Assembly (NCBI GenBank): GCA_964568625.1
Contig: CAZMQG010000001.1
Location: 83,393 to 147,392 of the forward strand
Length of the DNA: 64,000 nucleotides
Direction of reading: 5' to 3'
From: an uncultured Pseudomonadota bacterium
GTDB taxonomy: Bacteria > Babelota > Babeliae > Babelales > RVW-14
The notes beneath the pieces are model-generated. The model was not told the origin of the DNA. It worked only from the letters and a program-made list of their open reading frames with translations, and made no database searches. This document shows, in pieces, positions 3,176 to 55,467 of the stretch; position 1 is the stretch's first letter; every line of letters begins with the position of its first letter. Position numbers and translations under genes: made by a program.

Positions 3176-3275
3176 GGATCCCAGCCTTCGCTTTGAAATA
3201 GCTTCGGCGGGCAGGCCTGAAACAAATTCCCAGCCGTCGCGTTTGAAACGCTATGGCGGACAGGCAGGATGACAG
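3176..3275. repeat. Composite palindromic element: GATCCTGAAACAAATTCAGGATGAC-type hairpin carrying two 35-bp inserts
   Basis: Inserts at 3181-3215 (ccagccttcgc...gcttcggcgggcagg) and 3230-3264 (ccagccgtcgc...gctatggcggacagg). Deleting them restores the motif seen intact at 25019-25040. Confidence 0.7.
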
Positions 3276-4671: not shown

Positions 4672-4680
4672 TGAGTCTCC

Positions 4681-5835: not shown

Positions 5836-5847
5836 TTTACCAAACTT

Positions 5848-6915: not shown

Positions 6916-7011
6916 TATCAACTCTTCAAATCAGCCAAAGACACTTTTACACGCAAAAAGATCCCCACGTAGGAACATTTGCACTTTCTTGAAAAGTAAG
7001 TCTACCACCTT

Positions 7012-8319
7012 TTATCTTCTATTCAACACATAAATCTCAAGTAATCTTTCCAGTGAAATTTTTTTCCAAATATTTATACACCCATCACTACCAACTAAAA
7101 CAACAATTCGCCCATCTGCAGAAATATCTCCTTTAGATGCACACAATTCAGAACCTAATTCTTGGATTTTAATATATTTATTTTGCTGCTTTATAAATTT
7201 CCATACATCAATTTTAGCATATGGCCTCCCCGACATTATTAAAGATTTATCATAGGAAACTTTAACAAACTGAGCCCTCCCTCCTGTGCTAAGTTGTTGT
7301 AATAGGCTACAACTATAATCAGCTCCGCTGTATTTCAATACATTCAAATCTTCAGATGCAGCAACAATAATATCTCTATCTTCAGATAAATCCGCATCTT
7401 GAAGATGACTACACCAATTTACAACTGTATTAACTAATCGATATTGTGGAACACCAATAGAATCGATTTCGTTCAAATTCCAAATTCGAATATTTGAAAT
7501 TCCATTTAGCATAGAGCAACAAGTAAAGGTTATTTTATCCGCAGAAAATTTTAATTTTTCCGGATATATATTAGGATCCGCCAAACGTTGAACTTCATTA
7601 TATTTATTTCCATCAAAATGCCAAACTCTTACCGAATTATCATCGCATCCAACAATTATAATTTGCTGATCTTGTGAAATAGAGATAGACAATATCAAAG
7701 ACTCACAGGGTAACTGCTGAAAATATTTGTATTCTGATCCATTAAATTTCCAAACGTTTACTGAATTATCATCAATAGATCCCGTAATAATTAAATTATT
7801 ATCTGAAGAAATTGATACAGAATCTACTCGATCCATATTTGACACATTAGGATCATACAAATCCGAATAGACTGATGCGTAATCTCTCTTGGATGTTCCT
7901 ACCTTAACAAAATGGCCATTAAGCATTTGAAAGAATTCATATCCCTTTCCATTGAATTTCCATATTTTCACAGAAGAATCATATCCACCCGTTACAATAA
8001 GCTGGTTGTCCCTTGAAATACAAACGGATGCAACAGAACTGTTAGTTTTAATCGTCTGAAACAAATCATATTGTTGTTTGCAGTCAAACGACAGTATATT
8101 AAACAATTCATCCTCAATTTCTTGAAGTAATTCAACTGGCAATCTTGATTGTGCTGTTCTAAATATATCAACAGGATTATGTGATTTTAATATATCAAAG
8201 ACTATTTCATCGCGTGCTATATTTGCAAGGCAAGGGGTCCACTTTGAACTCATGGCACCAGCATAATAATTTTCTGAGCAGCAAACCAATAATAAAAATA
8301 AATAACTAATTTTTTTCAT
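7012..8319 (-). CDS. Secreted WD40-repeat protein with an F-box-like N-terminal motif
   Basis: Start MKKISYLFLLLVCC signal peptide (RBS not evident; upstream extension unlikely). Repeats SVCISRDNQLIVTGGYDSSVKIW, SVSISSDNNLIITGSIDDNSVNVW etc. LPVELLQEI precedes the repeats. Confidence 0.8.
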   Translation of the reverse strand: MKKISYLFLLLVCCSENYYAGAMSSKWTPCLANIARDEIVFDILKSHNPVDIFRTAQSRLPVELLQEIEDELFNILSFDCKQQYDLFQTIKTNSSVASVCISRDNQLIVTGGYDSSVKIWKFNGKGYEFFQMLNGHFVKVGTSKRDYASVYSDLYDPNVSNMDRVDSVSISSDNNLIITGSIDDNSVNVWKFNGSEYKYFQQLPCESLILSISISQDQQIIIVGCDDNSVRVWHFDGNKYNEVQRLADPNIYPEKLKFSADKITFTCCSMLNGISNIRIWNLNEIDSIGVPQYRLVNTVVNWCSHLQDADLSEDRDIIVAASEDLNVLKYSGADYSCSLLQQLSTGGRAQFVKVSYDKSLIMSGRPYAKIDVWKFIKQQNKYIKIQELGSELCASKGDISADGRIVVLVGSDGCINIWKKISLERLLEIYVLNRR

Positions 8320-8444
8320 AATGCATTGAACCTTAAGATTAAGAACAATTCTAACAATTAAAACTATTTGTTGCCCTGCAGGATAACCTAAATGCAAAAA
8401 AATGTTAATTTAAATTTAGAGTAAATAAAATCAATAGCATAAAC

Positions 8445-9701
8445 TTAAACAATTACTGGAGTCAGAATCCAACCCTCAAATCTCGGAGCCGTTTTTAAAA
8501 TGCCATAAACAGCTCTATCTACTATTCCATACTCCGTTGCTGCAGTAAAAGTAAAAATTGGAATTTTTTGATGAGCCACCACTATACGGGCCTCTGCCCA
8601 CTCCTCCATACTAACAACTCCATCCCACTGAAGCGGCGCACCAAGTTGCGTTTGATCTTTAAATAACGATAAACCGCCAGCATCATGTTGATGACCTCGA
8701 AAAAGTAGCTGAATTCCACTTTCCTTAAACCAATTCACCATATCACATGTAGCTAAATAGTCTATCCAACTAGCTCTTTTTAAATTCATTTCGATAGTAG
8801 ATCCATTTCCATGAAAATCCCCCCATACAAACCCATTAACCGCATCAGTACGACCATAACCAATCTTGTTAAAATCAATAGCTCCAACCATCTCCGAGCA
8901 ACCCAAAAAATATCGCATATCACAACATGGTTCAATTGCTCCATGACAACATTGTATCCATTTATCTGCGGATTTTAAGTATAAAACAAGTACAAGTTGC
9001 TTATATAACTCATCAAATTTTTTCAAATAAATGGGCCCGTTTTCTACCCCATACTTTGCAACTAACTCAGAATAAAAGCCTATAGGAGTATCGCTATTTT
9101 GATTCAAATTTTCATGATTGCCTCTTTGAATAAATATTTTATCCCAATTTGCTAATTTCAACCGCAATAGTGTATACCAAACCTCAACTCCATACGTACC
9201 TCGATCAACGTAATCCCCAGTAAAAACAATATGTAAATTATCGTTTATAATTTTAAAATTATCATCAACATGATTTTTGATTATTTTCAATAACGAATGG
9301 GCACTACCATGAATATCCCCAATAAAAACTATTTCACTTATACTAGGTAGAATTTTTTTCTGGCAGTAGGAAAGACTTATATCGTCGACAACATTAAATT
9401 GTGCCTGAAATCGACTCATATATTCATCTATTAATTTAGTCATACAAGAAAATGGAATAAACATATGTTGCATGCGCTCAAAAACAAGCAACTGATCTTT
9501 TACCGCTGAATCATCCATGCGTTTTTGCTCCGGCAAATTATCCATTTGCTGAATTAACCAACTTAGCGGTTTTTTATCAGCAGAAGAATCCCCTAATAAA
9601 ACAGGATATGTGAAGGCAGCATTTATTTGTGAAAAGCACAAAACAATTAATGGAAAAAACAATACCCTAAATGGGCAAAACCACTTAGCAATCATTGACA
9701 A
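8445..9701 (-). CDS. Secreted calcineurin-like (PPP-type) metallophosphoesterase
   Basis: GDIHG, GDYVDRG, RGNHE, CHG, RGHQH motifs; N-terminal hydrophobic signal segment. Confidence 0.85.
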   Translation of the reverse strand: MSMIAKWFCPFRVLFFPLIVLCFSQINAAFTYPVLLGDSSADKKPLSWLIQQMDNLPEQKRMDDSAVKDQLLVFERMQHMFIPFSCMTKLIDEYMSRFQAQFNVVDDISLSYCQKKILPSISEIVFIGDIHGSAHSLLKIIKNHVDDNFKIINDNLHIVFTGDYVDRGTYGVEVWYTLLRLKLANWDKIFIQRGNHENLNQNSDTPIGFYSELVAKYGVENGPIYLKKFDELYKQLVLVLYLKSADKWIQCCHGAIEPCCDMRYFLGCSEMVGAIDFNKIGYGRTDAVNGFVWGDFHGNGSTIEMNLKRASWIDYLATCDMVNWFKESGIQLLFRGHQHDAGGLSLFKDQTQLGAPLQWDGVVSMEEWAEARIVVAHQKIPIFTFTAATEYGIVDRAVYGILKTAPRFEGWILTPVIV

Positions 9702-9799
9702 TCCCCTTATTCAAGCATCAAAATAATAGATTAATATCCTAGCTAAAGATTGCCAGCACATAATGCAATTTGTCAATAAACCATGCATTGCTATATTAA

Positions 9800-10990
9800 T
9801 TACTCGCTTTTTAAATGCAATCGCATATGCCCTTTTTGAATACCTTCGCTAACAAGAGCTTTAAGCGCTGCAAAATTTTGAGCCAACCCTACACTTGCAA
9901 TAATTTGTGCAAGATCTAAAACAGATTTTATATCAAGAATTTTTAAACAAAGCTTAGCAAAAGGATTATTCTTTGTGGCACCACCAACAACACCAACAGC
10001 CAGTGGAATTTCTATTACTCCAACAAGATTGCCATTACAATCTTTTGAATATTCAGTTAAAGACTTATAAGAATTGTGCATGGCAGCGTATCCATGAATA
10101 CCTGCCTCAACAGCACGAAAATCGTTTCCTGTTGCCAAGCAAACAGCATCTATTCCATTCATTATACCTTTGTTATGGGTGACAGCACGGAATATATCAA
10201 TTTTTGCGATCTCATTTGCTTGAATAATTTTATCTATTAAATCAGAGCCAAGATCTTCTTTTTCCCAGACTGCTTGGGCTTTTACAATTCTATTAACAGC
10301 AAGATTTGATAATATCTTTAACAAAACATTTCCGCCTGTTATTTTTTCAAGAAATGGGGCCACTGCTTCACACATGGTATTAACAGCATTTGCACCCATC
10401 GCATCTTTTACATCAACAAGAAGATGTATCACCAAAACTTTTTCTGATAAATCAAGAGACTTAAACTCACCTAATACTCCTGACGATACAGGCTCAATTT
10501 CGCGAAAATTTAAATCAAATGCTCCTCCACCTAATTTTATAAGCACATTATCTTTAGAATTCGCAATTTCAAGAATTTTAGTTTTATGCTTTTCTATTTT
10601 TATTTTTGCACCAAAAATATCTTTTATCCCTAAAATATGCATTTGCCCAATCATTACAGATCGGCTTGAACTTGCAGTAAACCCCCCAAAGGACCTAGCC
10701 AATTTCGCCGCATTACTTGCAGCCGCAATTACACTGGCCTCTTCTGTAGCCATCGGGATAAGATAATCCTTGCCATTAATTATAAAATTTGTGGCAATCC
10801 CAAGTGGCACAGGAAAAACAGAAACCACGTTTTCGATCATCTGCTCAGCAAAACCAAAATCCATACTATCTTTTAAATTTAATAACAAAATATCCTGAGG
10901 TAAAAGATCTGCAAACTCTTTTAATAAATTAAGCCGCTCATCGCGGCTTAATTTGTAAAACTCTTTTATTCTACTATTCTTTTTATTCAT
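9800..10990 (-). CDS. mvaA: Class II HMG-CoA reductase
   Basis: ENVVS, PMATEEASVIAA, DAMGANAVN, HNKGIMNG, GIQKGHMRLH (catalytic His); the protein ends four residues after this motif. Confidence 0.9.
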   Translation of the reverse strand: MNKKNSRIKEFYKLSRDERLNLLKEFADLLPQDILLLNLKDSMDFGFAEQMIENVVSVFPVPLGIATNFIINGKDYLIPMATEEASVIAAASNAAKLARSFGGFTASSSRSVMIGQMHILGIKDIFGAKIKIEKHKTKILEIANSKDNVLIKLGGGAFDLNFREIEPVSSGVLGEFKSLDLSEKVLVIHLLVDVKDAMGANAVNTMCEAVAPFLEKITGGNVLLKILSNLAVNRIVKAQAVWEKEDLGSDLIDKIIQANEIAKIDIFRAVTHNKGIMNGIDAVCLATGNDFRAVEAGIHGYAAMHNSYKSLTEYSKDCNGNLVGVIEIPLAVGVVGGATKNNPFAKLCLKILDIKSVLDLAQIIASVGLAQNFAALKALVSEGIQKGHMRLHLKSE

Positions 10991-23773: not shown

Positions 23774-24904
23774 TTACATTCTACGATTATAAACAGCTGC
23801 CTTATAAAGTTGTAATGTTTTGGGATCAATAGATCCAAGATGAGTTTTTCCCTTGTTATAAACTTCTACGTCATTATGAAGATTATCCCATTGAAGATAG
23901 TGCGCCTTTCCATCAAGCAACCCCATAGCTCTATCTTTAAGTCTATATATACCATCTTTCCAATATTCATACTGATCTTTTAATTGTCTAAAAAACTCTA
24001 CCTTTGTAACAGTATTAATAATTCGATCGTTTGGTCCTTTTTTTGGATCTTTTGGCCCACCTCGACCAGAACGGCAATTCGGATCAACTCGTTCAAGATA
24101 AATTCCACCTTTTTTTTTATCGCCAAAAAAATAATTATACCCTACTATTCCCACCCCTGTAAAAACACCAAGCGCAAATCCAACCGGACCAAGTGAAACA
24201 TAACCTCCGCCAACCGATAAAGACGCTTCCGCAAATGATATAGATGCCGAAGTTGATCCAAATATCCAAGATGCGCCAACGGCAAGTGCCGGCAATCCAT
24301 TATGAGTTAATAATAAGCGACGCTCCTGATTTGCATACTCCGATTTTTCTGAAATTAAAAACGTATGTGGTTCTTCTACTTCTACTCCATATGCATAAAT
24401 TTTTACAGTCTGTATCTTTATAGGCCTCTTTTTTTTATCAAACTTTATCGTACAACAATCTGCCCTACGTATTTTTGTAATTGGAATACAAGACATATCA
24501 ACATCAATAAGCATATCTCCTGCATTCAGGTATTGGGCTTGAACAAAATCCGCCATAACTGAAATATTTTTTTCTTTATCTTCCCCAGCCTTAAGTACAA
24601 AAAATAAATGTTGGGGAGATGAATCAATCCAACGATACTTTTCTGTATAAATTGAAAAACCAGCCTCAAGCAAACATTTATCTATTTTCGTAATTTTTAC
24701 TTCAGTCAAGATTGTTTCAGTTTTTGTTGAATTAAAATTATAACTTAATACCTTATCCCCAATTTTTAATTTTTCTACTTTCACTAATCCAGTAGATGTT
24801 GCAACGAGTGTTCCTTCGGGAAGGCTTGATTGTACTAATTTAAACCATGAAAAAATAAACCCAAGAAATAAATATATCACATTAATTAGCTTAATCTTTT
24901 TCAT
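23774..24904 (-). CDS. Polymorphic toxin: signal peptide, Hint domain, hydrophobic linker, colicin E3-like RNase
   Basis: SLPEGTLVATSTGLVKVEKLKIGDKVLSY and VEVEEPHTFLI...LLTHN Hint blocks; C-terminal YLQWDNLHNDVEVY...HLGSIDPKT matches colicin E3 YEWDSQHGELEGY...HLGSFDPKT. Confidence 0.8.
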   Translation of the reverse strand: MKKIKLINVIYLFLGFIFSWFKLVQSSLPEGTLVATSTGLVKVEKLKIGDKVLSYNFNSTKTETILTEVKITKIDKCLLEAGFSIYTEKYRWIDSSPQHLFFVLKAGEDKEKNISVMADFVQAQYLNAGDMLIDVDMSCIPITKIRRADCCTIKFDKKKRPIKIQTVKIYAYGVEVEEPHTFLISEKSEYANQERRLLLTHNGLPALAVGASWIFGSTSASISFAEASLSVGGGYVSLGPVGFALGVFTGVGIVGYNYFFGDKKKGGIYLERVDPNCRSGRGGPKDPKKGPNDRIINTVTKVEFFRQLKDQYEYWKDGIYRLKDRAMGLLDGKAHYLQWDNLHNDVEVYNKGKTHLGSIDPKTLQLYKAAVYNRRM

Positions 24905-40500: not shown

Positions 40501-41004
40501 ATGACTTGTGCAAATAGTTTTTCTAAGACATTGATGATGGGTGCGGTATTTACGGTTATTGCATTACTTGGACTTGGAATTTGGTACGTCAAATTTGCAA
40601 GCAAAAATGAAATTCAACATACACTGGCAATCATTAAGCCTGATGCCGTAGCAGCCGGAAACAGTGGTAAAATCATTGATAAAATTGAACAAAGCGGATT
40701 CAAAATTATTGCAATGAAAAAAACTGAATTAACAAAAGAAAAAGCAGAAGAGTTCTATGCCGTTCACAAGGATAAACCATTCTTCGGCGAACTTGTAAGC
40801 TTTATGACTAGCGGCCCAATTGTTGTTCTTGTTCTTGAAAAAGAAAATGCAATTCAAGAATGGCGCAAGCTTATGGGTAAGGCAGAGATCGAAGGAACAT
40901 TACGCAACTTGTTCGGCACAAGTGTTACCAAGAATGCAGTTCACGGTTCTGACGCTCCTGAAACAGCAAAAGTCGAAATTAAACAGTTCTTTCCAGAACT
41001 TTAA
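40501..41004 (+). CDS. ndk: Nucleoside diphosphate kinase with an N-terminal hydrophobic anchor or signal
   Basis: TLAIIKPDAV, FYAVHKDKPFF, FMTSGP, GTLR, NAVHGSD (phospho-His). Confidence 0.92.
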   Translation: MTCANSFSKTLMMGAVFTVIALLGLGIWYVKFASKNEIQHTLAIIKPDAVAAGNSGKIIDKIEQSGFKIIAMKKTELTKEKAEEFYAVHKDKPFFGELVSFMTSGPIVVLVLEKENAIQEWRKLMGKAEIEGTLRNLFGTSVTKNAVHGSDAPETAKVEIKQFFPEL

Positions 41005-41024: not shown

Positions 41025-41070
41025 AAAAAGTAGAGGCGCAGGTTTTTCAACGTGCGCCTCTACTTTTTTT
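41025..41070 (+). terminator. Rho-independent terminator
   Basis: aaaaagtagaggcgca ... tgcgcctctacttttt, 16-bp stem ending in a T-run. Confidence 0.88.
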
Positions 41071-41172
41071 GGCCCATACACATAAATATATTGATTTTCT
41101 ATCCCTAATTTTTCTACGTTCTTATAAGTAATTTTTGATAATAAAAAAATTTATCTTTTAAGGGAGTAGATT

Positions 41173-44100
41173 ATGAATAAATTTCTGAGAATAATACTGT
41201 TATTTTGCATTGCATTCACGTTGGAATCAAATGCAATGCAGCCAAAATTAATCACACTCAAAACTAATCTCGGCACCTTAACAACAAAGCTGCAAATACT
41301 AGGACAAAAACTCGAAGCACTAAAAAACAAGCTCTCAGATAAAATTCAACCTGAATATCAAAAAAACCTAGATATTTACGCCCTGTACGGAGATAATCCA
41401 GGTATAATTAATGATTCTACAACAGGGCAACCAAGAGAATTAAAACTAGATAAGGACAAAAATTTAAGGCTTGTCGGGCTAGAAAATACTTCTTACACGG
41501 GCTATGGCTATAAAACAGCAAACCTCAGAGAACTGCAAAATATTATAAAAGAGATGAAAATCGCAAAGCCAACAACCTCAGAAGAACAACAATATATAAC
41601 TCAAACTAAAAAACTTAATTTCTTGAAATTACTTAAAAAACAAACTCTAAACATAGGTTATGCCGTTCCAGATTTTATAGGAATAAGCTCTGAAAACATA
41701 AAAAAATATCTCTTAAGTAAAAGCCTCAATATATCAAAACAGTGGAAGGATCTAACATCAACAATCCCTGCATCTGACCAAAAGGCATCTTTACAATCCA
41801 AAAATTTGCCTACCGCTTTTGTGACTGGAATTAATGGAATAGAAAAAGCAGTTAAGAATAAATTTCTTGGTGCAGCAGCTATTTCAATCGTAGATTTAGA
41901 TAAAGAGTTTAATACATCAGGCATAAAAACATTTTTAAGCACAGCGAAAGCTAAAAACCTCAAATTAATGGTTAGAAGTACAGGAAAAGAAGACACTGAC
42001 CAGTTGGCAAATGCAGGAGGTAATGAAACTATCGGCAATGTAGATCCAATCGACAAAAATATTTTAATGGCAATGGGACAAGGCCCAGAGGATCCCATTA
42101 ATAAAGGGGAGTTTAAACTAGGGGTCGTCTCATCATACTTTGGACTAAAATCATTTACACAAAGAATAAAAGCCGGCGATCTATCACTTTATGAAGAACC
42201 TCCAACCCCTGCTCTTATTCAAGTTATGATTGGTGAAACTCCTGATGAAATTACATCATGCGGCGTCATGTTTACTGAAGAGCCAGAAGGCGGAATTTCA
42301 CAAAAAAAAGAGATAAATTCCGACACCGGTCAGATTAAAACTACAGGCATTACACGTATTGAATGTTCTTATGGACATAACGAGGGTGTGGTTAACAGCA
42401 TGGTCCCAGTTGATGTTTACTACATCGATAATAAAAAGGAAATAAACTCCATAATTAGAATAAAAGATAAAAGAATAATTCCTACCCCAAAAGGATTTCA
42501 AATAACTACAAATGATAAACGCTTAGATGGAAGTTTAGCGGCAGATAAAGACTTACCTAATCAACCCGCGCTATCTAAAGAAGAAGTTAAGGCCCTCAAA
42601 ACTTTATCAAATTATCTTGAATTTCATTATAAAAAACCGATGGATGTTGAATTTGTTTTGAAAAAGGCTAATCCAACAGATAAAAAGCGCACCATTTATC
42701 TTGTTCAAGCTCGTCCAATTGTCCACAATGATAAAAAAATTACACCCAGCTATATTTTAAAACCGGAGGATTTTACTGAAAAAGTTACAGGAGAAGTTAT
42801 TGGCATCGCCGGAGGAGCGCTTAGACTCGTAAAAAGTAGAAACGAATGTGTTATCGCAGAAACACTTAAAGAAGCTCTTGAAATTTATCAAAAACTCGAC
42901 TCTTCAGATAATATTAATTGTATATTCGTGAAAAACATGGCTCCGGCAACTTCACATGAAGCAACGCAATTCAGAACGGAACAAAAAGCTGTAATGTGCG
43001 TACCTGAAGTTCAAATAATTGAAAAGTGGCTTCAAGAAAATAAATTTATTCTCATAGATATACAACAGGAACTTGTCACTGCTTGGGATGGAGATCCTAA
43101 TCTTGAAGAAGCACTAAAAAATGATACCCGACTGCACGATGGTTGGATTAACTACCCAATTCCAATGAAATTAACACTCGATGATCTTAAAGACAAAAAA
43201 TATAATAAAAAATTTTCTGCACTCAGCATAAGTGAAATAAACGCAAACTTTAAAGAATTCTTAAACTCTGATTATTTTAAAAATGTTGCAACCATGGCAC
43301 AAGATCAGGCAAAAAAAGATTTCATTAAGAAAAAAGGAGCTAAGCGAACAGTAAATTTAGCAATGTTTCGAATATGCTTCAATTCAATAAAAAAAGATGT
43401 TGAAGAATCAGCAAAATTAAATCTATGTAAGCTTTGCCTAGGCCTAAGTTCCCTTATAAATCAAATGCTAAAACAACTGAAGGATGATGATTTTACTTAT
43501 CAATCCAAACTTATATTGAATCATCTTTTAATACATGCTAAACAAGTAAGTTCTGTTTTGAAAATTCAACCATCTGACGCTAACTATTTCCAACGCTTAT
43601 ATGAAGTAAGATTTTTAGAATCCATTCTATTTCAAACTTCATCCAATGATATTTTTAATAATTATTCATTAGAAAATTTAACAACAAATATTTATGCAAA
43701 AGAGAAATCGATCGAAAAAGAGTTAAGAAAAACCGTACCAATGACGGTTGTAGGTGAAAAATTCAACCAACTAGTTCAATATGGAAAAGCTGCAGAATTT
43801 ATCCTAACCGATGATTTAAAGGCAAAATGGAATAAACTTCTAACTCAACTTCCCAATACTGATCTTAAAACTGATCAGAAAAAATTTAATGTAATGTTTG
43901 ATAATTTAGCAAAAAACAATCTTTTAACCGTTTGGTTTTTATTAAGCGTTGAACCGGTAATAAAAAATAAAAATATTACTTCAAAATTTGAAGCCCATAA
44001 TATAATTGATCAATTATATTCGGATTACAATACAAATAAGCCATTTATCGACGAATTAAAAAAACAAAGAGATAAATTTAATGAGTTAGAAATATCACTG

Positions 44101-47100
44101 TGGAGTAGCGCACATAAATTTGGCAAACAAAAAGAAAATTTAGAAAAAATTGGGGCATACTTTAAAAACCAAGCATTTTTCGACTCATACAACGCCTCAG
44201 GCAATCTGGGCAAAGTATTTGCAACTCAGGTAATGGAAGAATTTATTACTCTTTTTGACACATCAATAAAACAACTTGAAAGCAGCCTAAAAGAATATCC
44301 TGATGAACAAACTCTTATTACTAATATCAAAACTTTAATTACACTGTTTTTAAGTTTTTTATCTGAGTGGATTAATAAGTTTCCGGGAGCAATAAATATC
44401 GATGGGGCTAATGCTTGGGGAGGCCAAACATATACTCAACAAAAATACGACACCGCACAAGCAACTTTGTCCGGTATTTCACCAAATTCCACTAACTATA
44501 ATGACCAAATCAAAATATCTCCAACATTTGATGTAGGAGCATCTGCAATCGGAGGATCTAAAGAGACGGTTGCCAATCTTACAACATTAGAGGATATATT
44601 TACATTTACCCATCAAAGTTTATTGAACATATTAGGTTTTTTAAATAAAAGCATAGATATATTTGGAGCTTGCCCCCAAATAATTTCAAGACTAAATACA
44701 GAACTAACATCTGAAATAAAAACATTAACATCAACTGCTTATGTTGCGCCAAAAGACATAACATTAGCAGGATTATCGATTGAGGGTAAAAATTTAAAAC
44801 TAAAATATAACTATCCTCTCCGTGGACACAGTATGACTATCAATATTAACTTTGAAATAAAAACGAAAATAACAACTATTGCCTGCGAAATTGCCGGTAC
44901 TGGAGGTGGCGCAGGCGGAAATGAATTTGCAAGATTTTATAAAATAGGGGATTACATTGATGTTACAAGCAAAGCGTTAAATTTAAAATCAAATTATAGA
45001 TTCGAAATTCAGGATAAAAAAATAATATGGGAGTGGAAAATTGATTCTAAAACACCTGATATAAATATTTCAAAAATCAAAAATTTAATATTTGAAGCAG
45101 TTTGCATTTCATATGCCGTAAATAACTATCATAATGCAATGGCCTATGAAGCCAAGATATATCAAGAAACCTTTAATTTTATAGATAAAAACGCACTGAC
45201 AACACAGATCATAATTTTTTCAGAACAAAAGGAAAGATTGCACAGTGTTTTCGTAACAGCGCTTGAAAATCTTCCCCAAAATGCAACGTCCTGTAATAAC
45301 TGGGCAAAGACAATTGAAATTTTAGGAAAACTTATTAATGAAAATAATCCATATAGAATAAACACCGAATGTTTCTTTTTTAAAAAATACCACGATCCTT
45401 ACATGGGAGGGTTCCATCATCAATTAAATTATTTGAATATAGAAAATACATTATATCATGAATTAACCTCAAAAAATTATTTATCCATATCCAACACAGA
45501 GATTCAAAACATTGATTTAAAGAGAAATTACTTCAAATTCCGCGAGGCTAAAAAGATATTTAACTATCTGTGCCAAGTTTCACAATATTTTGACGAAAAT
45601 TGTTGGAATAAATTTTTAGATTTAATTAAATCTAACACTGAGCTAGTACTTGGCTTAGAAGACTTAACCCTTGATGATATGGAGGGAGATGGCCCCGCAG
45701 CGGCTAATTTAGAAAATACGGGCACTCAAGGCAGAACTCTAAAACTGCACAATTCCATATCAAAATTATTTAATAACGGATTTACAAGCAAGGTTGCAGG
45801 AGTTAAAGATAAGGCAAAAGCAACAGCAGAAACTTTAATATCAATGGGAATAACTGGTGGGCATCCAGAATGGACAACCGTAAAAGATCTAATTTTAAAT
45901 CAATATACACCCAAATTTGGAATATTTTCTTCTGCAGCGGTTCAGGCCACAATAATACAGTCAATTACAAAGACCCCAGAAGTATTTATTGCCCAAGCTA
46001 ATGCAGAAGATTCATTTAAATTAGTATATCCATCTAAAAAAGCTACATTAAAACCTTTTATAAGCTCATTAGGCGATTTTGCAATGAACCCGAATGATCA
46101 AATCTCCCAGGTAGCCTTCAAAATACTTACTTATTTAAAAGCCCAAGGAGAAGATATTTCAGCCTCATTTGCAAATATTTCGCAAAAAATAAAAACTGAC
46201 CAGGTCACGCTTTTACAACAACAAAAAATTACAAATTTAATAACTCTATTATATGATTTAGTTCCCAACCAAATGCAATTTTTGACAGAAGCAGAGGTAA
46301 TCGCAAAAAAGGCACTGAAATCATCAACTTTTACTACAAAAAATGAAGGAGTAAAATTAGCAAAATTCGTTTTATCCAAAAATCCAGCCGCCGCCTTTAA
46401 TCCTGCAGATTTAATCGATTTACAAGAAATAAAAAATTATATTGATCAATATACCTTCAATGATACGCCTGATAAAAAAGGGGAAAATGCTATCCAAAGC
46501 CTTAAATCAACCGGAACAGCAAATAAGGCAACTGTCCAAGATCCAATGCTTATAGATACAATAAAAAATCAAATCCAAAAGGGCTACTATTTCGGGAATA
46601 CCCAAAATCCAAATGTTTTAGATCTGTATGAATTGATTTCACAAAAAATCTATACTGACCATGAGTTAATCGAAACAGCAAAAACTGACTTAATGGGAAT
46701 ATTGAATAATACAAGCGTAGCCGATGGCGTTGTGCCAACTTATCCTGACCAACGTAATAAAATTGTAAATTTTGCAGAATATTTAATAAGAAATAACAAT
46801 GTAGATAAAAGTGACGTATGGGCCATTTTACAAGCTAGCGGAACAGACACAAAACGAAAATCATTAATTTGCATCCAGATTTTATTTAAAACTCATTACG
46901 ACACAAAAGAATTTTTCGATTTAAGCATTCCTTTAATATTTACCCAAATTAATGCCAATGACGGTGCAAGCAATTACAGTAAAATTGCAAATGATTGTTA
47001 TACGACACTTTACCAATCTATTATTCAAAATAAATATTCACACCAGGATAAGGCTCTATTAAAAACAACTCTTCAATCTTTGGCATTAACACCCGGATCA

Positions 47101-47142
47101 TACCCACAATCACAAAAAGAAGAGATTATTGGCTTATTATAA
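41173..47142 (+). CDS. Secreted 1989-aa PEP-synthase/PPDK-like dikinase (ATP-grasp plus phospho-His swivel) with a large unknown C-terminal region
   Basis: Signal peptide; LMVRSTGKED...AGGNET..NV, IQVMIG, GVMFT, SYGHNEGVVN, PMDVEF, IYLVQARP; swivel motif APATSHEATQFR (His595). No PEP-binding TIM-barrel signature. Confidence 0.8.
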   Translation: MNKFLRIILLFCIAFTLESNAMQPKLITLKTNLGTLTTKLQILGQKLEALKNKLSDKIQPEYQKNLDIYALYGDNPGIINDSTTGQPRELKLDKDKNLRLVGLENTSYTGYGYKTANLRELQNIIKEMKIAKPTTSEEQQYITQTKKLNFLKLLKKQTLNIGYAVPDFIGISSENIKKYLLSKSLNISKQWKDLTSTIPASDQKASLQSKNLPTAFVTGINGIEKAVKNKFLGAAAISIVDLDKEFNTSGIKTFLSTAKAKNLKLMVRSTGKEDTDQLANAGGNETIGNVDPIDKNILMAMGQGPEDPINKGEFKLGVVSSYFGLKSFTQRIKAGDLSLYEEPPTPALIQVMIGETPDEITSCGVMFTEEPEGGISQKKEINSDTGQIKTTGITRIECSYGHNEGVVNSMVPVDVYYIDNKKEINSIIRIKDKRIIPTPKGFQITTNDKRLDGSLAADKDLPNQPALSKEEVKALKTLSNYLEFHYKKPMDVEFVLKKANPTDKKRTIYLVQARPIVHNDKKITPSYILKPEDFTEKVTGEVIGIAGGALRLVKSRNECVIAETLKEALEIYQKLDSSDNINCIFVKNMAPATSHEATQFRTEQKAVMCVPEVQIIEKWLQENKFILIDIQQELVTAWDGDPNLEEALKNDTRLHDGWINYPIPMKLTLDDLKDKKYNKKFSALSISEINANFKEFLNSDYFKNVATMAQDQAKKDFIKKKGAKRTVNLAMFRICFNSIKKDVEESAKLNLCKLCLGLSSLINQMLKQLKDDDFTYQSKLILNHLLIHAKQVSSVLKIQPSDANYFQRLYEVRFLESILFQTSSNDIFNNYSLENLTTNIYAKEKSIEKELRKTVPMTVVGEKFNQLVQYGKAAEFILTDDLKAKWNKLLTQLPNTDLKTDQKKFNVMFDNLAKNNLLTVWFLLSVEPVIKNKNITSKFEAHNIIDQLYSDYNTNKPFIDELKKQRDKFNELEISLWSSAHKFGKQKENLEKIGAYFKNQAFFDSYNASGNLGKVFATQVMEEFITLFDTSIKQLESSLKEYPDEQTLITNIKTLITLFLSFLSEWINKFPGAINIDGANAWGGQTYTQQKYDTAQATLSGISPNSTNYNDQIKISPTFDVGASAIGGSKETVANLTTLEDIFTFTHQSLLNILGFLNKSIDIFGACPQIISRLNTELTSEIKTLTSTAYVAPKDITLAGLSIEGKNLKLKYNYPLRGHSMTININFEIKTKITTIACEIAGTGGGAGGNEFARFYKIGDYIDVTSKALNLKSNYRFEIQDKKIIWEWKIDSKTPDINISKIKNLIFEAVCISYAVNNYHNAMAYEAKIYQETFNFIDKNALTTQIIIFSEQKERLHSVFVTALENLPQNATSCNNWAKTIEILGKLINENNPYRINTECFFFKKYHDPYMGGFHHQLNYLNIENTLYHELTSKNYLSISNTEIQNIDLKRNYFKFREAKKIFNYLCQVSQYFDENCWNKFLDLIKSNTELVLGLEDLTLDDMEGDGPAAANLENTGTQGRTLKLHNSISKLFNNGFTSKVAGVKDKAKATAETLISMGITGGHPEWTTVKDLILNQYTPKFGIFSSAAVQATIIQSITKTPEVFIAQANAEDSFKLVYPSKKATLKPFISSLGDFAMNPNDQISQVAFKILTYLKAQGEDISASFANISQKIKTDQVTLLQQQKITNLITLLYDLVPNQMQFLTEAEVIAKKALKSSTFTTKNEGVKLAKFVLSKNPAAAFNPADLIDLQEIKNYIDQYTFNDTPDKKGENAIQSLKSTGTANKATVQDPMLIDTIKNQIQKGYYFGNTQNPNVLDLYELISQKIYTDHELIETAKTDLMGILNNTSVADGVVPTYPDQRNKIVNFAEYLIRNNNVDKSDVWAILQASGTDTKRKSLICIQILFKTHYDTKEFFDLSIPLIFTQINANDGASNYSKIANDCYTTLYQSIIQNKYSHQDKALLKTTLQSLALTPGSYPQSQKEEIIGLL

Positions 47143-47206
47143 AAGCCATTATTATTGTGTAGAATATGTCGATAAAATAGTATTTTTACCGTATTTTGAG
47201 TATTTT

Positions 47207-47235
47207 TTGCCAATATAAATTTCATTTCGTATAAT
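47207..47235 (+). promoter_or_regulatory. Sigma70 promoter for the single-domain phosphatase
   Basis: TTGCCA-17 nt-TATAAT. Confidence 0.6.
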
Positions 47236-47292
47236 TATATTGTCAAATAGTAGTATTTTTATACTTTTTTATCTAACTTGTTTGGAGGTTTT

Positions 47293-47847
47293 ATGAATAT
47301 TTTTAAAAACAGATCTTTTTTTTCTAAGTCATTTTTATTTTTTCCAGCAATTTTAATTACAGCAATCAGTTGTCACGCAATGCCTGAACAACCATTAAAT
47401 TTTGGCTGGCTTCTAGAAAACAAAATTTGCGGCATGGCAAGACCTAAAAAAACGGAACATTTAAGGTGGTTAGAAGAAAAGAACGTTGGACTTGTTGTTA
47501 CATTGACCGGCGAAGGCAATTTGCCTAATGCCATTTTTGATGGTACAAAACTAGAAAGACTTTATATTCCGGTCGAAGACTTTCACATTCCAACATTTGA
47601 GCAAGCGGATTTATTTATCAACAAAGTCACAGAATTTCTTAAAACAGGTAAATCAATCGTTGTCCATTGTGCCGGCGGCAAGGGAAGAACTGGAACAATG
47701 CTGGCGTGCTGGTTAGCTATAAAAGAAAATATGAATCCGGACGAAGCTATCAAATTTGTTCGTATAAAAAGACCTGGCTCAGTAGAAACCAAAGAGCAAG
47801 AACAATTTGTAAGAGATTATTTTGAATACTCAAAAAAGTCTAAGTAA
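47293..47847 (+). CDS. Secreted dual-specificity phosphatase (DUSP23-like)
   Basis: GGAGG RBS, signal peptide, NFGWL...GMARP, VEDFHIP general acid, HCAGGKGRTGTMLAC (Cx5R), RPGSVETKEQ. Confidence 0.88.
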   Translation: MNIFKNRSFFSKSFLFFPAILITAISCHAMPEQPLNFGWLLENKICGMARPKKTEHLRWLEEKNVGLVVTLTGEGNLPNAIFDGTKLERLYIPVEDFHIPTFEQADLFINKVTEFLKTGKSIVVHCAGGKGRTGTMLACWLAIKENMNPDEAIKFVRIKRPGSVETKEQEQFVRDYFEYSKKSK

Positions 47848-47885
47848 AAAATTTGTATGCTAAATAACCAGCAGACAAAATAAAT

Positions 47886-47923
47886 TCAAGCCACGAGTGT
47901 TAGATCTAACACTCGTGGCTTGA
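47886..47923. terminator. Perfect 38-bp palindrome between convergent genes
   Basis: tcaagccacgagtgttagatctaacactcgtggcttga equals its own reverse complement. Confidence 0.7.
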
Positions 47924-47932
47924 CCGTTTTAA

Positions 47933-50209
47933 CTATTTTGAATCATCTTTAAATTTCTTGATAGCGATTGCATCATAATTTTGACCAGATAAGCTATCAA
48001 TTTTTTGTAAAATATCTTGCGATATTTTATCACTGAATGACTTATTTTTAACAGCCATGGCAAGATGTCCTCTCAAATAAGCACTAAGCGTAGACTTTAG
48101 GCCCATACTAGAATTTATAAATATTTTTTCTACAGATTCAAGTACTAAATCTGTATCTTCTATTGGACCTAAGATTACACATACACCTTTAAATAAGTTA
48201 AACCCATCTATTATGCAAGATTTAACTGAAGCAGTCTTATTTTTTATAAAATCAACATCAATCCATTCAGGAAGATCACTACCACTAGTAAGACGCATAA
48301 CCATTCCAACCATTTTTCCTAAACACCCAACATGATCTAAATTAAATTGAACCATTGTCTCAAGCGTTGCCTTACTTGATAAAATGAATTTCAATATACC
48401 GTTAAAATGTTTTAAATTGTCTGAATCCTTTAATAAGAGATCTTTTGGGAACTTATATAAAAATGGTATCAGATTCAAATTCTTACGCTGAATACTATCA
48501 GCTACAAATCCATCAAAAATTAATTTTACAAAATCACAGTCCTTCTTATTTCCAGCGATTTTGTTATAAATTTCTCGCAAGATAGAAACTGATGTTTTTT
48601 CATCAAATTTAATTTCTTTTTCTACAAGTACAATTGGAACTTTCGATGCAATTTCAGCCTCCTTACTCAATTTTTCTTGAAGCTCTTTCTTCGCATCCGC
48701 CTCTTTTTTTAGTCTTTCAGCTTCTTCATGTACCTTCTTTAGAACTTCTGCTGCAGCTTCCTGGGCTTTTTGATCTTTATCTTTTTGCGCTTTTTCTGCA
48801 GCTTCTTGGGCCTCTCTTATCGTTCTAGCCTGTTCTTCTGCAATTCTTTTTTCTTCCTCTTCCTTAGCCTTTTTAGCTGCCTCAGCCACCTCTTCTTCTT
48901 TTGCTTTCGCATCAGCCATTCTCTTTGCCAACTCCTTGTCTATTGCTTTTATACAACGTAATGCATGAATTAAAGTCAAAAGCTGACGTTTGACAGTTCG
49001 CCCTTCAAAAGTAAAGCCTTTGACAGCATCTGTGTATCCAGGCGTTTGGGCCCCTACAACTTCAACTTTTGGACTTTTACCCGCATTTTCGAGCATGTAC
49101 AAATCGCAAGCTTCTGTAACCGCTTCAGTTTTTTCATCAAATCCATCCGCTATACTTGTTATTACTTTAATCAAATGGCTCAAACAAATAACCGCCAAAT
49201 TTTTGTATTTTCTTGCACCTGAATAATGCTGTCCTGAATACCAAAGAATTGCACCCGTAGCCCACTTCAAAAAAGATGGTTCACTGTACTTATTTGACAA
49301 AAGCGCATATGCCACAATCAAGCTTTGTGTACGCATAGTCAATAATGGCAACAAGCTTTTTAAAACTTCTGAATCTGTAACTTTGCCTTCAAGTATGGCC
49401 TCTGTTATATAATCGGCAGATGATTGTAAAAATTTTTTATTTTGCTCAACACCAACACCACTTACAATATTCCCGGCTTTAGCATTTACATACCCATCGT
49501 CAACCAAAGCCTTCATACTTGCAATAATTGCACCAGCGTTTGACGAATCAATTGCATTAACTTTCATACCCATTGCATACTGTTCAGCAACAGCAATTTC
49601 CCCTCCCCAAATTTTTTCATAAGGGCTATAAATATTTATAAGCGTTTGTTCATAATCTTTACAAATATATTTAATCTGAAATAGTTGCTCATCAGAAAAA
49701 CTACTTAATGATCCAAACAATTCCGCAAAATATTCTTTCTGTTTGGTAATAAGTTGTGCGTCTTTAGAAAATTCAGATAAATTACCCTTTAAATCCTGTT
49801 TTAGAAATTCAGTTTCTAAATTAATCAAATCATCTACTGGACCATCTTCCTTTTGAGTCTCATTCAACAAATAAAGATTATCATAAAATGCGTTTACAGC
49901 TCCTTGAAGCGTTGCTCGATCAATTACCCCTTGAACTAATCCATCTGGATTAATCCCACCACCAAGCTTACCTTCGCCCAATTGGAATTCTGCGCCTAAA
50001 GTTGGAGCACCGGTAATATCTTTATCTTCAAGTCTATCCTTAAGTAACCCAAGCTTTGTAACCAAAAGTTCATTTTTGTTTTTTAATTCTTTTAATTTAA
50101 CTGACAATTCGGTAAGAGAACTTTTCAAATCACCAGCCATACCCCATAAGTTTGAGGAAAAAACAAAAAATATAATAAATAATATTCGACGAACAATACG
50201 CCTTTTCAT
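47933..50209 (-). CDS. Secreted hypothetical protein with N-terminal heptad tag and central Glu/Lys/Ala coiled coil
   Basis: GGAG RBS, signal peptide, SLTELSVKLKELKNKNELLVTKLGLLKDRL, KAKEEE...KEAE stretch; no catalytic motif recognised. Confidence 0.7.
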   Translation of the reverse strand: MKRRIVRRILFIIFFVFSSNLWGMAGDLKSSLTELSVKLKELKNKNELLVTKLGLLKDRLEDKDITGAPTLGAEFQLGEGKLGGGINPDGLVQGVIDRATLQGAVNAFYDNLYLLNETQKEDGPVDDLINLETEFLKQDLKGNLSEFSKDAQLITKQKEYFAELFGSLSSFSDEQLFQIKYICKDYEQTLINIYSPYEKIWGGEIAVAEQYAMGMKVNAIDSSNAGAIIASMKALVDDGYVNAKAGNIVSGVGVEQNKKFLQSSADYITEAILEGKVTDSEVLKSLLPLLTMRTQSLIVAYALLSNKYSEPSFLKWATGAILWYSGQHYSGARKYKNLAVICLSHLIKVITSIADGFDEKTEAVTEACDLYMLENAGKSPKVEVVGAQTPGYTDAVKGFTFEGRTVKRQLLTLIHALRCIKAIDKELAKRMADAKAKEEEVAEAAKKAKEEEEKRIAEEQARTIREAQEAAEKAQKDKDQKAQEAAAEVLKKVHEEAERLKKEADAKKELQEKLSKEAEIASKVPIVLVEKEIKFDEKTSVSILREIYNKIAGNKKDCDFVKLIFDGFVADSIQRKNLNLIPFLYKFPKDLLLKDSDNLKHFNGILKFILSSKATLETMVQFNLDHVGCLGKMVGMVMRLTSGSDLPEWIDVDFIKNKTASVKSCIIDGFNLFKGVCVILGPIEDTDLVLESVEKIFINSSMGLKSTLSAYLRGHLAMAVKNKSFSDKISQDILQKIDSLSGQNYDAIAIKKFKDDSK

Positions 50210-50270: not shown

Positions 50271-51590
50271 TTATTTAATCAAGAGCTTAGTTTTGAGAAT
50301 TAACAACTTTTCCTGCAATATACTAAGCTTCCCTTGAAAAGAAACAAGCGATCCCTTTAAACTACTCAATTTCTCGCGCAGTCTATTTAGCTGTTGTTCC
50401 CGCTCAATCCCTTCATAAAATTCTCCAATTTCTTCAGCTTCTTCAATTTGTTTTTTTGATTTTCTCCCCTTTGATAACTGTTTTGCCTCTTTTAATTTTT
50501 TGGCCAGAATATCACCACTTGGAGCTTCGGCTAAATTCCCAGTTAGCTGCCTTATTTTTTTATCTACCTTTTTCAATTTTTTTAATTTTCTGTTAAGTAA
50601 AATATTATAATATCTCAAAACAAACTTTATTTGCTCATCTGTTTCTATCGACCCAGGCCTCTTTGCTCTAACAAGATTAATAGCATCGACAGCCTTCATA
50701 TTTTTATTTGCTAGCAACCAACATGCAAGAATTGTCCCCGTTCTCCCCTTCCCTCCCCAGCAATGCACAACCGTTGCTTTACCGTTGGATTTCAAAATTT
50801 TTTTAGATTTTTCTATAAATTTATCAACCTGATCTATTGTAGGCACACCAAAATCATGAATTGGAAGGAATAGCCGTTCGATATCAACACTTTTAAATAT
50901 TTCAGGATCAGGGCCTTCTCCTGGCTCAGTAAGCGTCACAACCAGTCCCACATTAAGATCATGTAACGCCTTGATTTGTTCATTAGTTTTTGGCATAGCC
51001 ATACCGGCAATTACCCCATCTACAACCCAAGAAAAATTATTTCTCTTTAAAATTAAATATCTATAATATTCTTTAACAAAAATTTCCTGATCAATAGACG
51101 CTATTGATCCCAGACTTTTATTACGTACCAATTTTATAGCTATATCTGGGCTCATATCTGTATTTGCCAACAACCAACATGCAAGCATTGTTCCCGTTCG
51201 CCCCTTGCCTAACCGACAATGAACAACTGTTGCTTTCCCAGTCTTATCCCAAACTTCTTTAGATTTTTCTATAAATTTATTAACCTGATCCACAGTCGGA
51301 ATTCTCCCATCAGGTATAGGGAAAATGAAACGTTCAATATCAACGTTCTTGAAGATTTCAGGAACAGGGCCTTCTTTTGGCTCAGTAAGGGTCACAACAA
51401 GACCAACATTAAGATCATGTAACGCCTTGATTTGTTCATTAGTTTTTGGCATAGCCATACCGGCAATTCCCCCATCTACAATCCAAAAAAATTTATTTTT
51501 CTTTAACGTATTCGGAATCGTTTTCGCACAATGCAAAGCTTGAAAAAATAAGACACTTGCAATAATTATTCTTTTAAATAAAATACGCAT
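50271..51590 (-). CDS. Secreted tandem dual-specificity phosphatase with C-terminal heptad tag
   Basis: GGAG RBS, signal peptide; two DSP domains (HCRLGKGRT, HCWGGKGRT) offset by 152 aa. Confidence 0.88.
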   Translation of the reverse strand: MRILFKRIIIASVLFFQALHCAKTIPNTLKKNKFFWIVDGGIAGMAMPKTNEQIKALHDLNVGLVVTLTEPKEGPVPEIFKNVDIERFIFPIPDGRIPTVDQVNKFIEKSKEVWDKTGKATVVHCRLGKGRTGTMLACWLLANTDMSPDIAIKLVRNKSLGSIASIDQEIFVKEYYRYLILKRNNFSWVVDGVIAGMAMPKTNEQIKALHDLNVGLVVTLTEPGEGPDPEIFKSVDIERLFLPIHDFGVPTIDQVDKFIEKSKKILKSNGKATVVHCWGGKGRTGTILACWLLANKNMKAVDAINLVRAKRPGSIETDEQIKFVLRYYNILLNRKLKKLKKVDKKIRQLTGNLAEAPSGDILAKKLKEAKQLSKGRKSKKQIEEAEEIGEFYEGIEREQQLNRLREKLSSLKGSLVSFQGKLSILQEKLLILKTKLLIK

Positions 51591-54327: not shown

Positions 54328-55467
54328 TTAAGCCAGTTCTGAGAATTGCTCACGTGGTATTGGAACGTAACTTAAATGCAAAGATCTTCCCCATGCCATT
54401 AAGAAACTGCGCAATCTGTACGCCTTTGGAGTCGTAGAATTTCTAGGAAATGCCGGATCTATACATAAAACACACTGCTTCTCTTTATTCCATCCTACAA
54501 CCACCATCAGGTGCCCATTAGTGTATGATGTAGCGCCTCCACGTAATTTGCGAACACTAACGGCTACAGGAATTTTTTTAGAAAGATATTTGTAGAGATC
54601 ATCAAAAAAGTTCAGCCTCTCAACTCGAAAGAAAACATTTCCATAAGTTGCATCATGAGCAGCTGCAACATTAAGCGGCCAGTTTCCATAAATATTTAAG
54701 TACCCGTTGTCATAAACTTTATCTGCAAAATCAACCATATAACTATTCAAATCATGCGAACAGTCACCATAAAGTTTTTTATTAAAATAATTTACAATAA
54801 TTCCGGTAGAGGTTGGTGAACACAAGTCACGATAACGTGGATGATTCAGTACCATTTGAGACTGTCTTGGTACACCGCTCACAATAACAGAAGGAAGGTT
54901 CGAAACGTAGGAATCACCCTTAAATTTTTTAACATTCGATAAACATGCAAACAAGGCTTTTAGATTTTTGGGATTTGCACCCTTTTGAAACACAACCTTA
55001 ACCTTAAATGCCGTACCCAGCTGCCCCTTTTTCAACTCCACTTTAGAGTGTGTTGTATGCACATAACGATTAAGCTTATTAACAAAAGTTCGCTGAGATG
55101 TAGCTCCCCACTCAGCAAGACGTTGCCATCCTGCCCAAGATGAGTGCTTTACATTAACCCAAAAAGTCATTTTCCCTTTTTCAGGACGCATCGCATTCCA
55201 CGACAAAATGAGCTCGGTAAATGGAAAGTTTGGCTCACATTCCCAAATAAAAAACTCTTGATCTGATTCAATCTCACCTTCAAAAATATACCTTGATACT
55301 GTTTTTGAAAATTTTTCGCTACTAAAAGATTGAGTCGAATCTAAATCCCTGTGTCGTTTTCTTCTTCCTGAACTTACTGCATTTACATTCAGAAAATTAA
55401 ACGTAACACACGCTATTAAAAATAAAAAAAAACGCTTTTTAAATCCAATAAAAACCTTCATTAACAT
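54328..55467 (-). CDS. Secreted peptidase C39-like family protein
   Basis: Signal peptide; RSQMV...LCSPTST (Cys), GHLMVVVG (His), IDPA (Asp). Confidence 0.75.

Follow-up and report, generated by a model that had tools for sequence, protein, structure and literature searches.

Members of the dikinase superfamily owe their substrate, be it pyruvate, rifampicin, phenols, flavonoids or glucans, to their acceptor domain. In plant starch metabolism, the dikinases GWD and PWD are functionally paired with the dual-specificity phosphatase (DSP) glucan phosphatases SEX4, LSF2 and laforin, and in Enzyme I of the phosphotransferase system (PTS) a phospho-histidine swivel domain hands its phosphate to HPr docked on a helical subdomain. 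Here we analyzed a dikinase-like gene (positions 41173..47142, forward strand) in a 64,000-nucleotide stretch of contig CAZMQG010000001.1 (assembly GCA_964568625.1; hereafter the window, ~34% G+C) from a member of the Dependentiae (Babeliales, TM6), obligate intracellular parasites of protists. This placement follows from the ClpB encoded in the window, which shares 70-95% identity with proteins named Candidatus Babeliales or Dependentiae. To our knowledge, the Dependentiae are represented by only a handful of isolates and none of their effectors has been characterized. The predicted protein joins an ATP-grasp domain and a swivel domain of the phosphoenolpyruvate (PEP) synthase type to a conserved domain of unrecognised fold, and on balance we read it as an exported, host-directed phosphotransferase of this protist parasite that would pass phosphate from ATP through His595 to an acceptor.

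The gene encodes 1989 residues, as a preliminary description of this DNA had reported, and begins with an ATG that lies 6 nt downstream of a Shine-Dalgarno sequence read directly in the DNA (AGGGAG, 41161..41166). A 10-bp GC-rich hairpin followed by a T-run (41030-41070), a terminator, closes the upstream NDK gene, so that the dikinase-like gene is probably its own transcription unit. Residues ~100-525 (41470..42747) form an ATP-grasp domain (PPDK_N). PF01326 covers residues 161-522 with an E-value of 7.4e-23 and is the sole Pfam match in the protein. All ATP-grasp motifs quoted in the preliminary description were recovered at the positions it gave: the PpsA-type VRST..ED..AGGNET..NV motif at residues 266-290 (MVRSTGKEDTDQLANAGGNETIGNV), GVMFT (364-368), SYGHNEGVVN (399-408), DVEF (491-494) and VQARP (511-515). 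With their residues numbered, the motifs read GYGYK114TANL, VR268S269..E273D274..AGGN284, D491-x-E493 and Q512-A-R514-P. Conservation was counted throughout in 183 family sequences aligned by hidden Markov model (HMM), which are 24-60% identical overall; K114, R268, S269, E273, D274, N284, D491, E493, Q512 and R514 are each kept in 175-182 of them.

A family profile, built from an alignment of 31 members and run against PDB sequences, matched Neisseria PEP synthase (2ols) at 1.5e-23 with the canonical motifs in register, and Listeria rifampin phosphotransferase (RPH) at ~1e-21. The corresponding NCBIfam models scored 56 (PpsA, cut-off 598) and 27 bits (RPH NF041857, cut-off 999), and RedH (undecylprodigiosin ligase) reached 19 bits against a cut-off of 1350 with the ATP-grasp part only; all three are 10-50 times under their cut-offs. 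An AlphaFold2 (AF2) model of residues 90-1270 had a mean predicted local distance difference test (pLDDT) of 83.5 and a predicted template modelling score (pTM) of 0.78, and Foldseek recovered the ATP-grasp fold from it, with RPH (5hv1/5fbs; 1.5e-9), the small-molecule dikinase HpeI (9goj; 7e-9) and PPDK (3.7e-5) as matches.

The ATP-grasp domain is followed directly by a phospho-histidine carrier, or swivel, domain (residues ~526-660, 42748..43152) with the sequence ATS594-H595-EA597. The TSHEATQFR that had been proposed as its catalytic motif occupies residues 593-601, the CAT codon of His595 lies at 42955-42957, and both S594 and H595 are conserved in 182/183 family sequences. In the AF2 model, residues 526-656 form a small alpha/beta domain with His595 at the N-terminus of a helix. 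A profile of the swivel segment returned three PDB matches, all of them PEP-utilizer mobile domains (8a8e, 9dae and 2e28; E 0.06-0.55 each), and the family's atSHeA falls on their catalytic GGxTSHAA, which aligns H595 with the catalytic histidine of PEP synthases and of the PEPut domain of pyruvate kinase. The Chlamydiia homologue L076 came closest to the Pfam model PF00391 (E 1.8e-4; 21.5 bits, cut-off 23.1), and PF00391 had no match in the 31 family members at E<=0.1. We therefore assign residues ~526-660 to a putative swivel homologue on profile and fold evidence and not on a Pfam score. The retention of the ATP-grasp catalytic residues and of S594-H595 in 175-182 of 183 sequences argues that the protein has the ATP-to-histidine half of a dikinase and that purifying selection maintains it.

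What would normally complete such an enzyme is missing. PF02896, the PEP/pyruvate triosephosphate isomerase (TIM) barrel, was found neither in the whole query, nor in five overlapping pieces of it (E<=10), nor in the 31 members, and no SIGTNDL-type barrel signature occurs in the 1989-residue protein. The absence of the barrel claimed in the preliminary description is thus borne out, and of the Pfam families it had named, PF01326 was found, PF02896 was absent and PF00391 stayed under threshold in the query. Neither of the two computational outcomes that would have spoken against a barrel-less dikinase, a PF02896 match or the loss of the ATP-grasp fold, was observed.

In place of the barrel, residues ~661-1195 (43153..44757) form an all-helical, family-specific domain of more than 20 helices (pLDDT mostly 80-95), closed by a four-stranded antiparallel sheet and a helix (residues ~1196-1270, 44758..44982; YN1213-YPLRG-H1219-S) that complete the conserved module. 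The helical domain is only ~25% identical across the family apart from six near-invariant polar residues: D1029 and H1147 are present in all 183 sequences, K1033 in 182, Q1148 and H1219 in 181 and E1140 in 179, and N1213 is found in 160/183. They are set in the motifs FD1029-TSI-K1033 and LE1140-DIF-TFT-H1147-Q1148-SLL, with a further motif at RFLESILFQ821, and the invariant residues occupy single faces of two helices (spaced i/i+4 and i/i+3/i+7/i+8) and a beta-hairpin. Neither the whole protein nor its pieces gave a Pfam match in this region, the profile search against PDB sequences returned only chance matches for it, and Foldseek against PDB and BFVD gave no match at E<1 outside the ATP-grasp part.

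An exhaustive HMMER search with the helical region identified 355 proteins among 1.84 billion representatives, and practically all long matches place it at residues ~600-1100, behind an ATP-grasp and a swivel domain. Matches that begin at the N-terminus are mostly 288-927 residues long, against a typical 1100-2100, and look like gene fragments. The possibility of an independent module was thus rejected; found only downstream of ATP-grasp and swivel, residues ~661-1270 constitute an obligate third domain. In line with this, BLAST coverage over 120 homologues showed residues ~100-1250 to be common to all, and residues ~1250-1989 to be shared by the closest few only. Being conserved with the rest of the module and carrying the invariant polar residues, residues ~661-1270 are our candidate, from sequence and model, for the acceptor domain or second active site. 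The single acceptor region of ~1350 residues in the preliminary description therefore holds in part: a conserved domain that could not be assigned to any known fold does lie there, but it ends near residue 1270, and the remainder is a variable solenoid. That the region is mostly helical was correct for both parts of the tail, as seen in the AF2 models.

This solenoid (residues ~1271-1989 plus stop codon, 44983..47142), which we divided into C1 (1271-1545), C2 (1546-1770) and C3 (1771-1989), is HEAT/ARM-like. Its AF2 model is entirely alpha-helical (pLDDT 86.4), and Foldseek found 78 PDB matches for it at E<=1e-3, with CAND1, SF3B1, PP2A-A and karyopherins at the head (~1e-4). Pfam HEAT had no match in the query itself and is present in the paralogues P0043, P0073 and P0099; other paralogues hold HEAT, ANK, DSP-PTPase or other domains at the same position. 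The solenoid evolves fast and is common to the closest relatives only. Used alone as a homology query, the C-terminal 730 residues returned nothing, although P0001 and P0002 match them at 59-92% identity; the word prefilter can evidently lose true relatives of low-complexity queries encoded by AT-rich DNA. As some fused relatives carry a PTPase at the position of C2, we considered C2 as a degenerate PTPase and rejected this, given that C2 has no CX5R motif and gave no phmmer match to either the two PTPases of the window or eight proteins that carry a fused PTPase.

Variation between strains is concentrated in the same part of the protein. Across 14.7 kb up to position 45840, the window and the metagenomic contig L080 are 99.98% identical; at this point in L080 an unrelated 234 bp stands, in frame, in place of the window's 864 bp (45841..46704, residues 1557-1844). 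Beyond this patch, the ~1.2 kb at 46705-47915, which comprise the 3' end of the gene and the adjacent phosphatase gene, are 96% identical. No internal or tandem repeats that could explain the L080 indel were found. The replacement and the ~4% divergence alongside it mark the solenoid as a hot spot of recombination or diversification, as would be expected of a host-contact surface. From its modelled fold, the solenoid is more likely a targeting or protein-binding scaffold than part of the acceptor domain.

We found 158 homologues at E<=0.001 in the protein collection and 111 family loci in species-representative genomes. Database names for them are "hypothetical protein" or "PEP/pyruvate-binding domain-containing protein," and neither literature on dikinases or PPDK_N with Dependentiae, Legionella, Chlamydiales or effectors, where we found no description of the family, nor broader literature on Dependentiae effectors, signal peptides and phosphatases yielded anything relevant to it. 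Most members belong to Dependentiae/Babeliales/TM6, whose genomes often encode more than one of them, also as tandem arrays. Others occur in metagenome-assembled genomes (MAGs) of Chlamydiales/Parachlamydiaceae, Legionella, Coxiellaceae and other Gammaproteobacteria, in one Rickettsiaceae genome and in one Oligoflexia MAG; among the species-representative genome loci, the distribution is confined to protist-associated intracellular lineages, with several MAG taxon labels being doubtful. Loci L021, L034, L035, L064 and others are labelled Planctomycetes, Methanobacteriota archaeon or with a name beginning Myxococc; the members at L021, L034 and L035 have Dependentiae-style signal peptides and that at L064 has none, and errors of binning or labelling may lie behind these taxon names. 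Neighbour-joining placed the members from Gammaproteobacteria and Rickettsiaceae together in one clade and the Chlamydiae mostly in another, with the greatest diversity within the Dependentiae, a pattern that suggests old transfers between phyla followed by vertical descent.

The N-terminus of the query (residues 1-21, 41173..41235; MNKFLRIILLFCIAFTLESNA) looks like a cleavable Sec-type signal peptide, with K/R in its n-region, a hydrophobic core of 13 residues (7-19), SNA at -3/-1 of a putative SNA/MQ cleavage site and no lipobox. The export signal noted in the preliminary description was thus seen again; signal peptides were judged here by a hydropathy heuristic and by eye, with no score from a dedicated predictor. 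A Leu/Lys-rich heptad-like stretch follows (residues ~25-56, 41245..41340; LITLKTNLGTLTTKLQILGQKLEALKNKL), a possible coiled coil by its sequence, and recurs in close paralogues, behind the USP domain of member P0042 and near the N-terminus of the neighbouring 758-residue open reading frame (ORF; 47933..50209, reverse strand). Across the family, the Dependentiae-type members examined all have a hydrophobic N-terminal signal sequence and the Oligoflexia member has a hydrophobic N-terminus; members from Legionella, Coxiellaceae, Rickettsiaceae, Chlamydiae and other Gammaproteobacteria have no signal sequence. This pattern is expected if an effector travels by Sec and the type II secretion system (T2SS) in Dependentiae and by type IV (T4SS) or type III (T3SS) systems elsewhere. 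Dependentiae genomes are reported to carry signal peptides on 44% of their coding sequences, enriched among candidate effectors, and to conserve the T2SS (PMC6561590, PMC4776705).

Family members are also fused to other domains, namely DSP-PTPase (in two architectures), USP, ANK and HEAT. In P0042, a USP deubiquitinase is N-terminal to the family module. The PTPase lies between C1 and C3 in P0007-P0014 and at the N-terminus in P0038, and these fused domains are 40-47% identical to the product of a gene directly downstream of the dikinase-like gene in the window (47278..47847, forward strand). This gene encodes an exported, single-domain, DUSP23-like dual-specificity phosphatase with a signal peptide and the motif HCAGGKGRTG (Pfam PTP-SAK, 1.3e-30; human DUSP23 is its closest solved relative in PDB, 1.4e-26). 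A promoter-like site precedes it at 47207-47235, and its real start is likely the ATG at 47293. A phosphatase adjoins the family gene in L001, L004, L006, L010, L019 and L080 as well, and the phosphatase at 47278..47847 is a probable functional partner of the dikinase-like protein.

From these features we propose the following mechanism. The Sec pathway would take the protein out of the bacterial cytoplasm, with T2SS or vesicles probably serving the next step. The ATP-grasp domain (residues ~100-525) would bind Mg-ATP, drawing on host ATP, and the beta-phosphate would move to His595 on the swivel with release of AMP and Pi, as in PpsA, RPH and GWD; this phosphotransfer we infer from the conserved residues. 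The swivel would then carry the phosphate to a site in the helical domain (D1029, K1033, E1140, H1147, Q1148 and H1219), and from there to the acceptor. This Asp/Lys/Glu/His/Gln/His set may bind metal, activate an acceptor hydroxyl, or both, and the HEAT-like solenoid would attach the enzyme to a partner or compartment of the host. Signal peptides in Dependentiae and none in the other lineages, together with eukaryote-directed fusions, give indirect support to a predicted export to a site where host ATP is available.

As acceptor we slightly and tentatively favour a hydroxyl group of a conserved host protein, given that the fused or adjacent partner is a protein phosphatase of the DUSP23 type, that the accessory domains are protein-binding, and that the transfer from Enzyme I to HPr sets a precedent within the superfamily. 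A lipid, inositol, glycan or small molecule as acceptor is only a little less probable. The family as a whole probably represents undescribed host-directed phosphotransfer effectors, judging from its sequences. A more far-reaching version would see in it a novel class of kinases for host proteins (or phosphoinositides) that use a PpsA-type ATP-grasp/phospho-histidine relay instead of a protein-kinase fold and bring the beta-phosphate of ATP to a conserved eukaryotic target bound in a domain of novel fold. In this version, horizontal transfer would have spread the family between Dependentiae, Chlamydiae, Legionellales and Rickettsiales, with a kinase/DUSP23-like phosphatase pair at work in one clade; we consider it unlikely to hold in full.

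Several observations weigh against a host-directed phosphotransferase. PF00391 had no match in the query, whether searched whole or as five overlapping pieces (E<=10), and the PDB sequence matches of the swivel (E 0.06-0.55) are non-significant one by one. The link to PTPases is confined to the query's sub-clade (5/79 comparison loci, the window and L080), and a polypeptide that combines kinase with phosphatase would run a futile cycle if the two activities shared one target site. A signal peptide implies export across the inner membrane only, not delivery to the host, and the signal-less members of Proteobacteria and Chlamydiae could be plain cytoplasmic enzymes. One rival reading is an enzyme working in the periplasm or envelope for the bacterium itself, where it would phosphorylate an envelope component or take part in nucleotide or phosphate handling with NDK and the exported phosphatases. 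In its favour, the signal peptide shows no more than Sec export, the gene's neighbourhood encodes several phospho-enzymes with export signals (PTPases, Metallophos), the upstream NDK carries a membrane anchor at its N-terminus, and NDK lies at most 8 kb away in L002, L010 and L045. However, NDK adjacency amounts to 3/79 loci, one of them plain synteny, and in the window a terminator separates the two genes. A conserved periplasmic role also fits poorly with the homologues of Legionella, Coxiellaceae, Rickettsiaceae and Chlamydiae that lack signal peptides, with the eukaryote-directed USP, ANK, HEAT and DUSP23-like fusions and with a C-terminus that is hypervariable between strains, and the supply of ATP in the periplasm is doubtful. 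We regard an envelope function as improbable.

The chemistry could differ as well. A phospho- or pyrophospho-histidine might prime a substrate for a following ligation or condensation of the kind that RedH/PigC-type enzymes carry out, or the module might hydrolyse ATP to AMP and 2 Pi and so deplete host ATP. The weak NCBIfam RedH matches among the dikinase-like families point this way, the acceptor domain has no recognisable fold, and a ligase-type or metal site would suit the invariant D, K, E, H, Q and H just as well. Yet the RedH score (19 bits against 1350) comes from the ATP-grasp part only, an ATPase needs no conserved 600-residue domain with invariant polar residues, and phosphatases as partner enzymes imply phospho-ester products, which makes both variants quite improbable. 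That the protein is a catalytically dead scaffold whose helical and HEAT-like regions bind host factors would suit a large, mostly helical protein with such a tail, and many bacterial effectors are pseudoenzymes; this is highly improbable given that the ATP-grasp catalytic residues and the swivel histidine are kept in 175-182/183 sequences at 24-60% identity, which indicates selection on catalysis. The chance that we are dealing with a poorly annotated metabolic PEP synthase or PPDK, or with a rifampin-type antibiotic phosphotransferase, is close to nil. PpsA and RPH are indeed the best named matches, but the first of these options is refuted by the absence of the PF02896 barrel in the query and 31 members, and NCBIfam scores far under the equivalog cut-offs, the different domain order of RPH, the signal peptide, the length of 1989 residues and the near absence of metabolism in the parasite (PMC6561590) speak against either. 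The pseudoenzyme and the ordinary PpsA/RPH explanations are effectively excluded, and a host-directed phosphotransferase remains our preferred reading.

The surroundings of the gene were surveyed for further clues. Conserved neighbours did not point to a pathway: the only cluster shared by several lineages consists of a generic ABC ATPase whose distance varies, RuvA and OmpA stem from synteny within the Babeliales, and NDK is found in only 3/79 loci. The NDK gene itself (40501-41004, forward strand), syntenic with the dikinase-like gene in L002 and L080, encodes an N-terminal extension of ~38 residues with a hydrophobic segment that could be a signal anchor or a signal peptide, a hint that this NDK is exported or tethered to the membrane. 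On the other side, the 758-residue ORF at 47933-50209 has no Pfam domain and begins with a signal peptide ahead of its heptad-like stretch. In the Babeliales locus L006, an 830-residue homologue is flanked by a dikinase-like gene on one side and PTPase genes on the other, and owing to this position the ORF may belong to the same functional set. A tandem two-domain DSP-PTPase of the PTP-SAK type is encoded at 50271-51590 (reverse strand), with two CX5R motifs and a signal peptide.

Exported candidate effectors abound in the window. A 376-residue exported protein (23774-24904, reverse strand) has an N-terminal Hint/pretoxin-HINT region and a C-terminal PF09000 "Cytotoxic" domain of the colicin-E3 type, and thus resembles polymorphic toxins, here in a parasite with an obligate intracellular life. 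Signal peptides are also found on a eukaryote-like WD40 beta-propeller protein (7012-8397), a calcineurin-like metallophosphoesterase (8445-9701) and a C39-like peptidase (54328-55467), all encoded on the reverse strand. Four ORFs within 3251-10990 (reverse strand) have N-termini resembling mevalonate kinase, thiolase, HMG-CoA synthase and HMG-CoA reductase, and may form a mevalonate-pathway cluster.

The conserved domain of ~600 residues is of interest as an unrecognised fold in the acceptor position of a protein predicted to be exported by an obligate parasite, and the module that contains it recurs in intracellular bacteria associated with protists, in no fewer than five unrelated lineages. 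If it acts on a host molecule, residues ~661-1270 would define a new Pfam-type domain, the relay from ATP through histidine to a target, with release of AMP and Pi, would be a new effector mechanism, and the protein would offer a first biochemical handle on host manipulation by Dependentiae. Should the acceptor be a component of the bacterial envelope, the interest would be narrower.

Compared with PpsA and PPDK, the protein has the same N-terminal PF01326 ATP-grasp motifs followed directly by a swivel with T-S-H, in like order. It differs in that their C-terminal PF02896 barrel is replaced by the ~600-residue helical domain and the ~720-residue HEAT-like solenoid, and in its signal peptide. 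RPH and HpeI are the best structural matches of the ATP-grasp part and provide a precedent for a swapped acceptor domain and for the phosphorylation of hydroxyl groups other than that of pyruvate. The Foldseek likeness to RPH is limited to the ATP-grasp part (TM-score 0.70 for the isolated ATP-binding domain and 0.2-0.28 for full chains), no similarity to the RIF-binding domain of RPH was detectable, and RPH has its substrate domain directly behind the ATP-grasp and ends with the His domain, whereas here the His domain is second.

As in the GWD/PWD systems of plants, a dikinase is probably paired with an enzyme of the dual-specificity-phosphatase fold, and one of the 31 family members scanned had a weak match to PF22973 GWD1_pHisD (E 0.009). 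The domain order is reversed, however, the His domain of GWD preceding a C-terminal ATP-grasp, and the Pfam scans of the dikinase-like protein contained no starch-binding modules (CBM45/CBM20). The adjacent phosphatase is nearest to DUSP23, Cdc14 and archaeal PTPs, with no glucan phosphatase among the 60 PDB matches listed. Enzyme I shows that, within the superfamily, a protein can serve as acceptor while docked on an alpha-helical domain near the swivel histidine. It is charged by PEP via a TIM barrel and not by ATP via an ATP-grasp, and the profile and fold comparisons made here returned no sequence or fold match to it.

In the literature searched on dikinases and on effectors of Dependentiae, Legionella and Chlamydiales, we found no described effector family with a PPDK_N/swivel module. 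With such effectors (Legionella Dot/Icm, chlamydial T3SS and Sec-dependent candidates of Dependentiae) the family shares a patchy distribution, paralogue expansion, ANK, HEAT, USP and DUSP fusions, a variable C-terminus and a Sec signal that is present or absent as befits the lineage. Set against these systems, the dikinase chemistry predicted for the front of the protein is familiar, and the acceptor domain and the biological context in which it appears are new.

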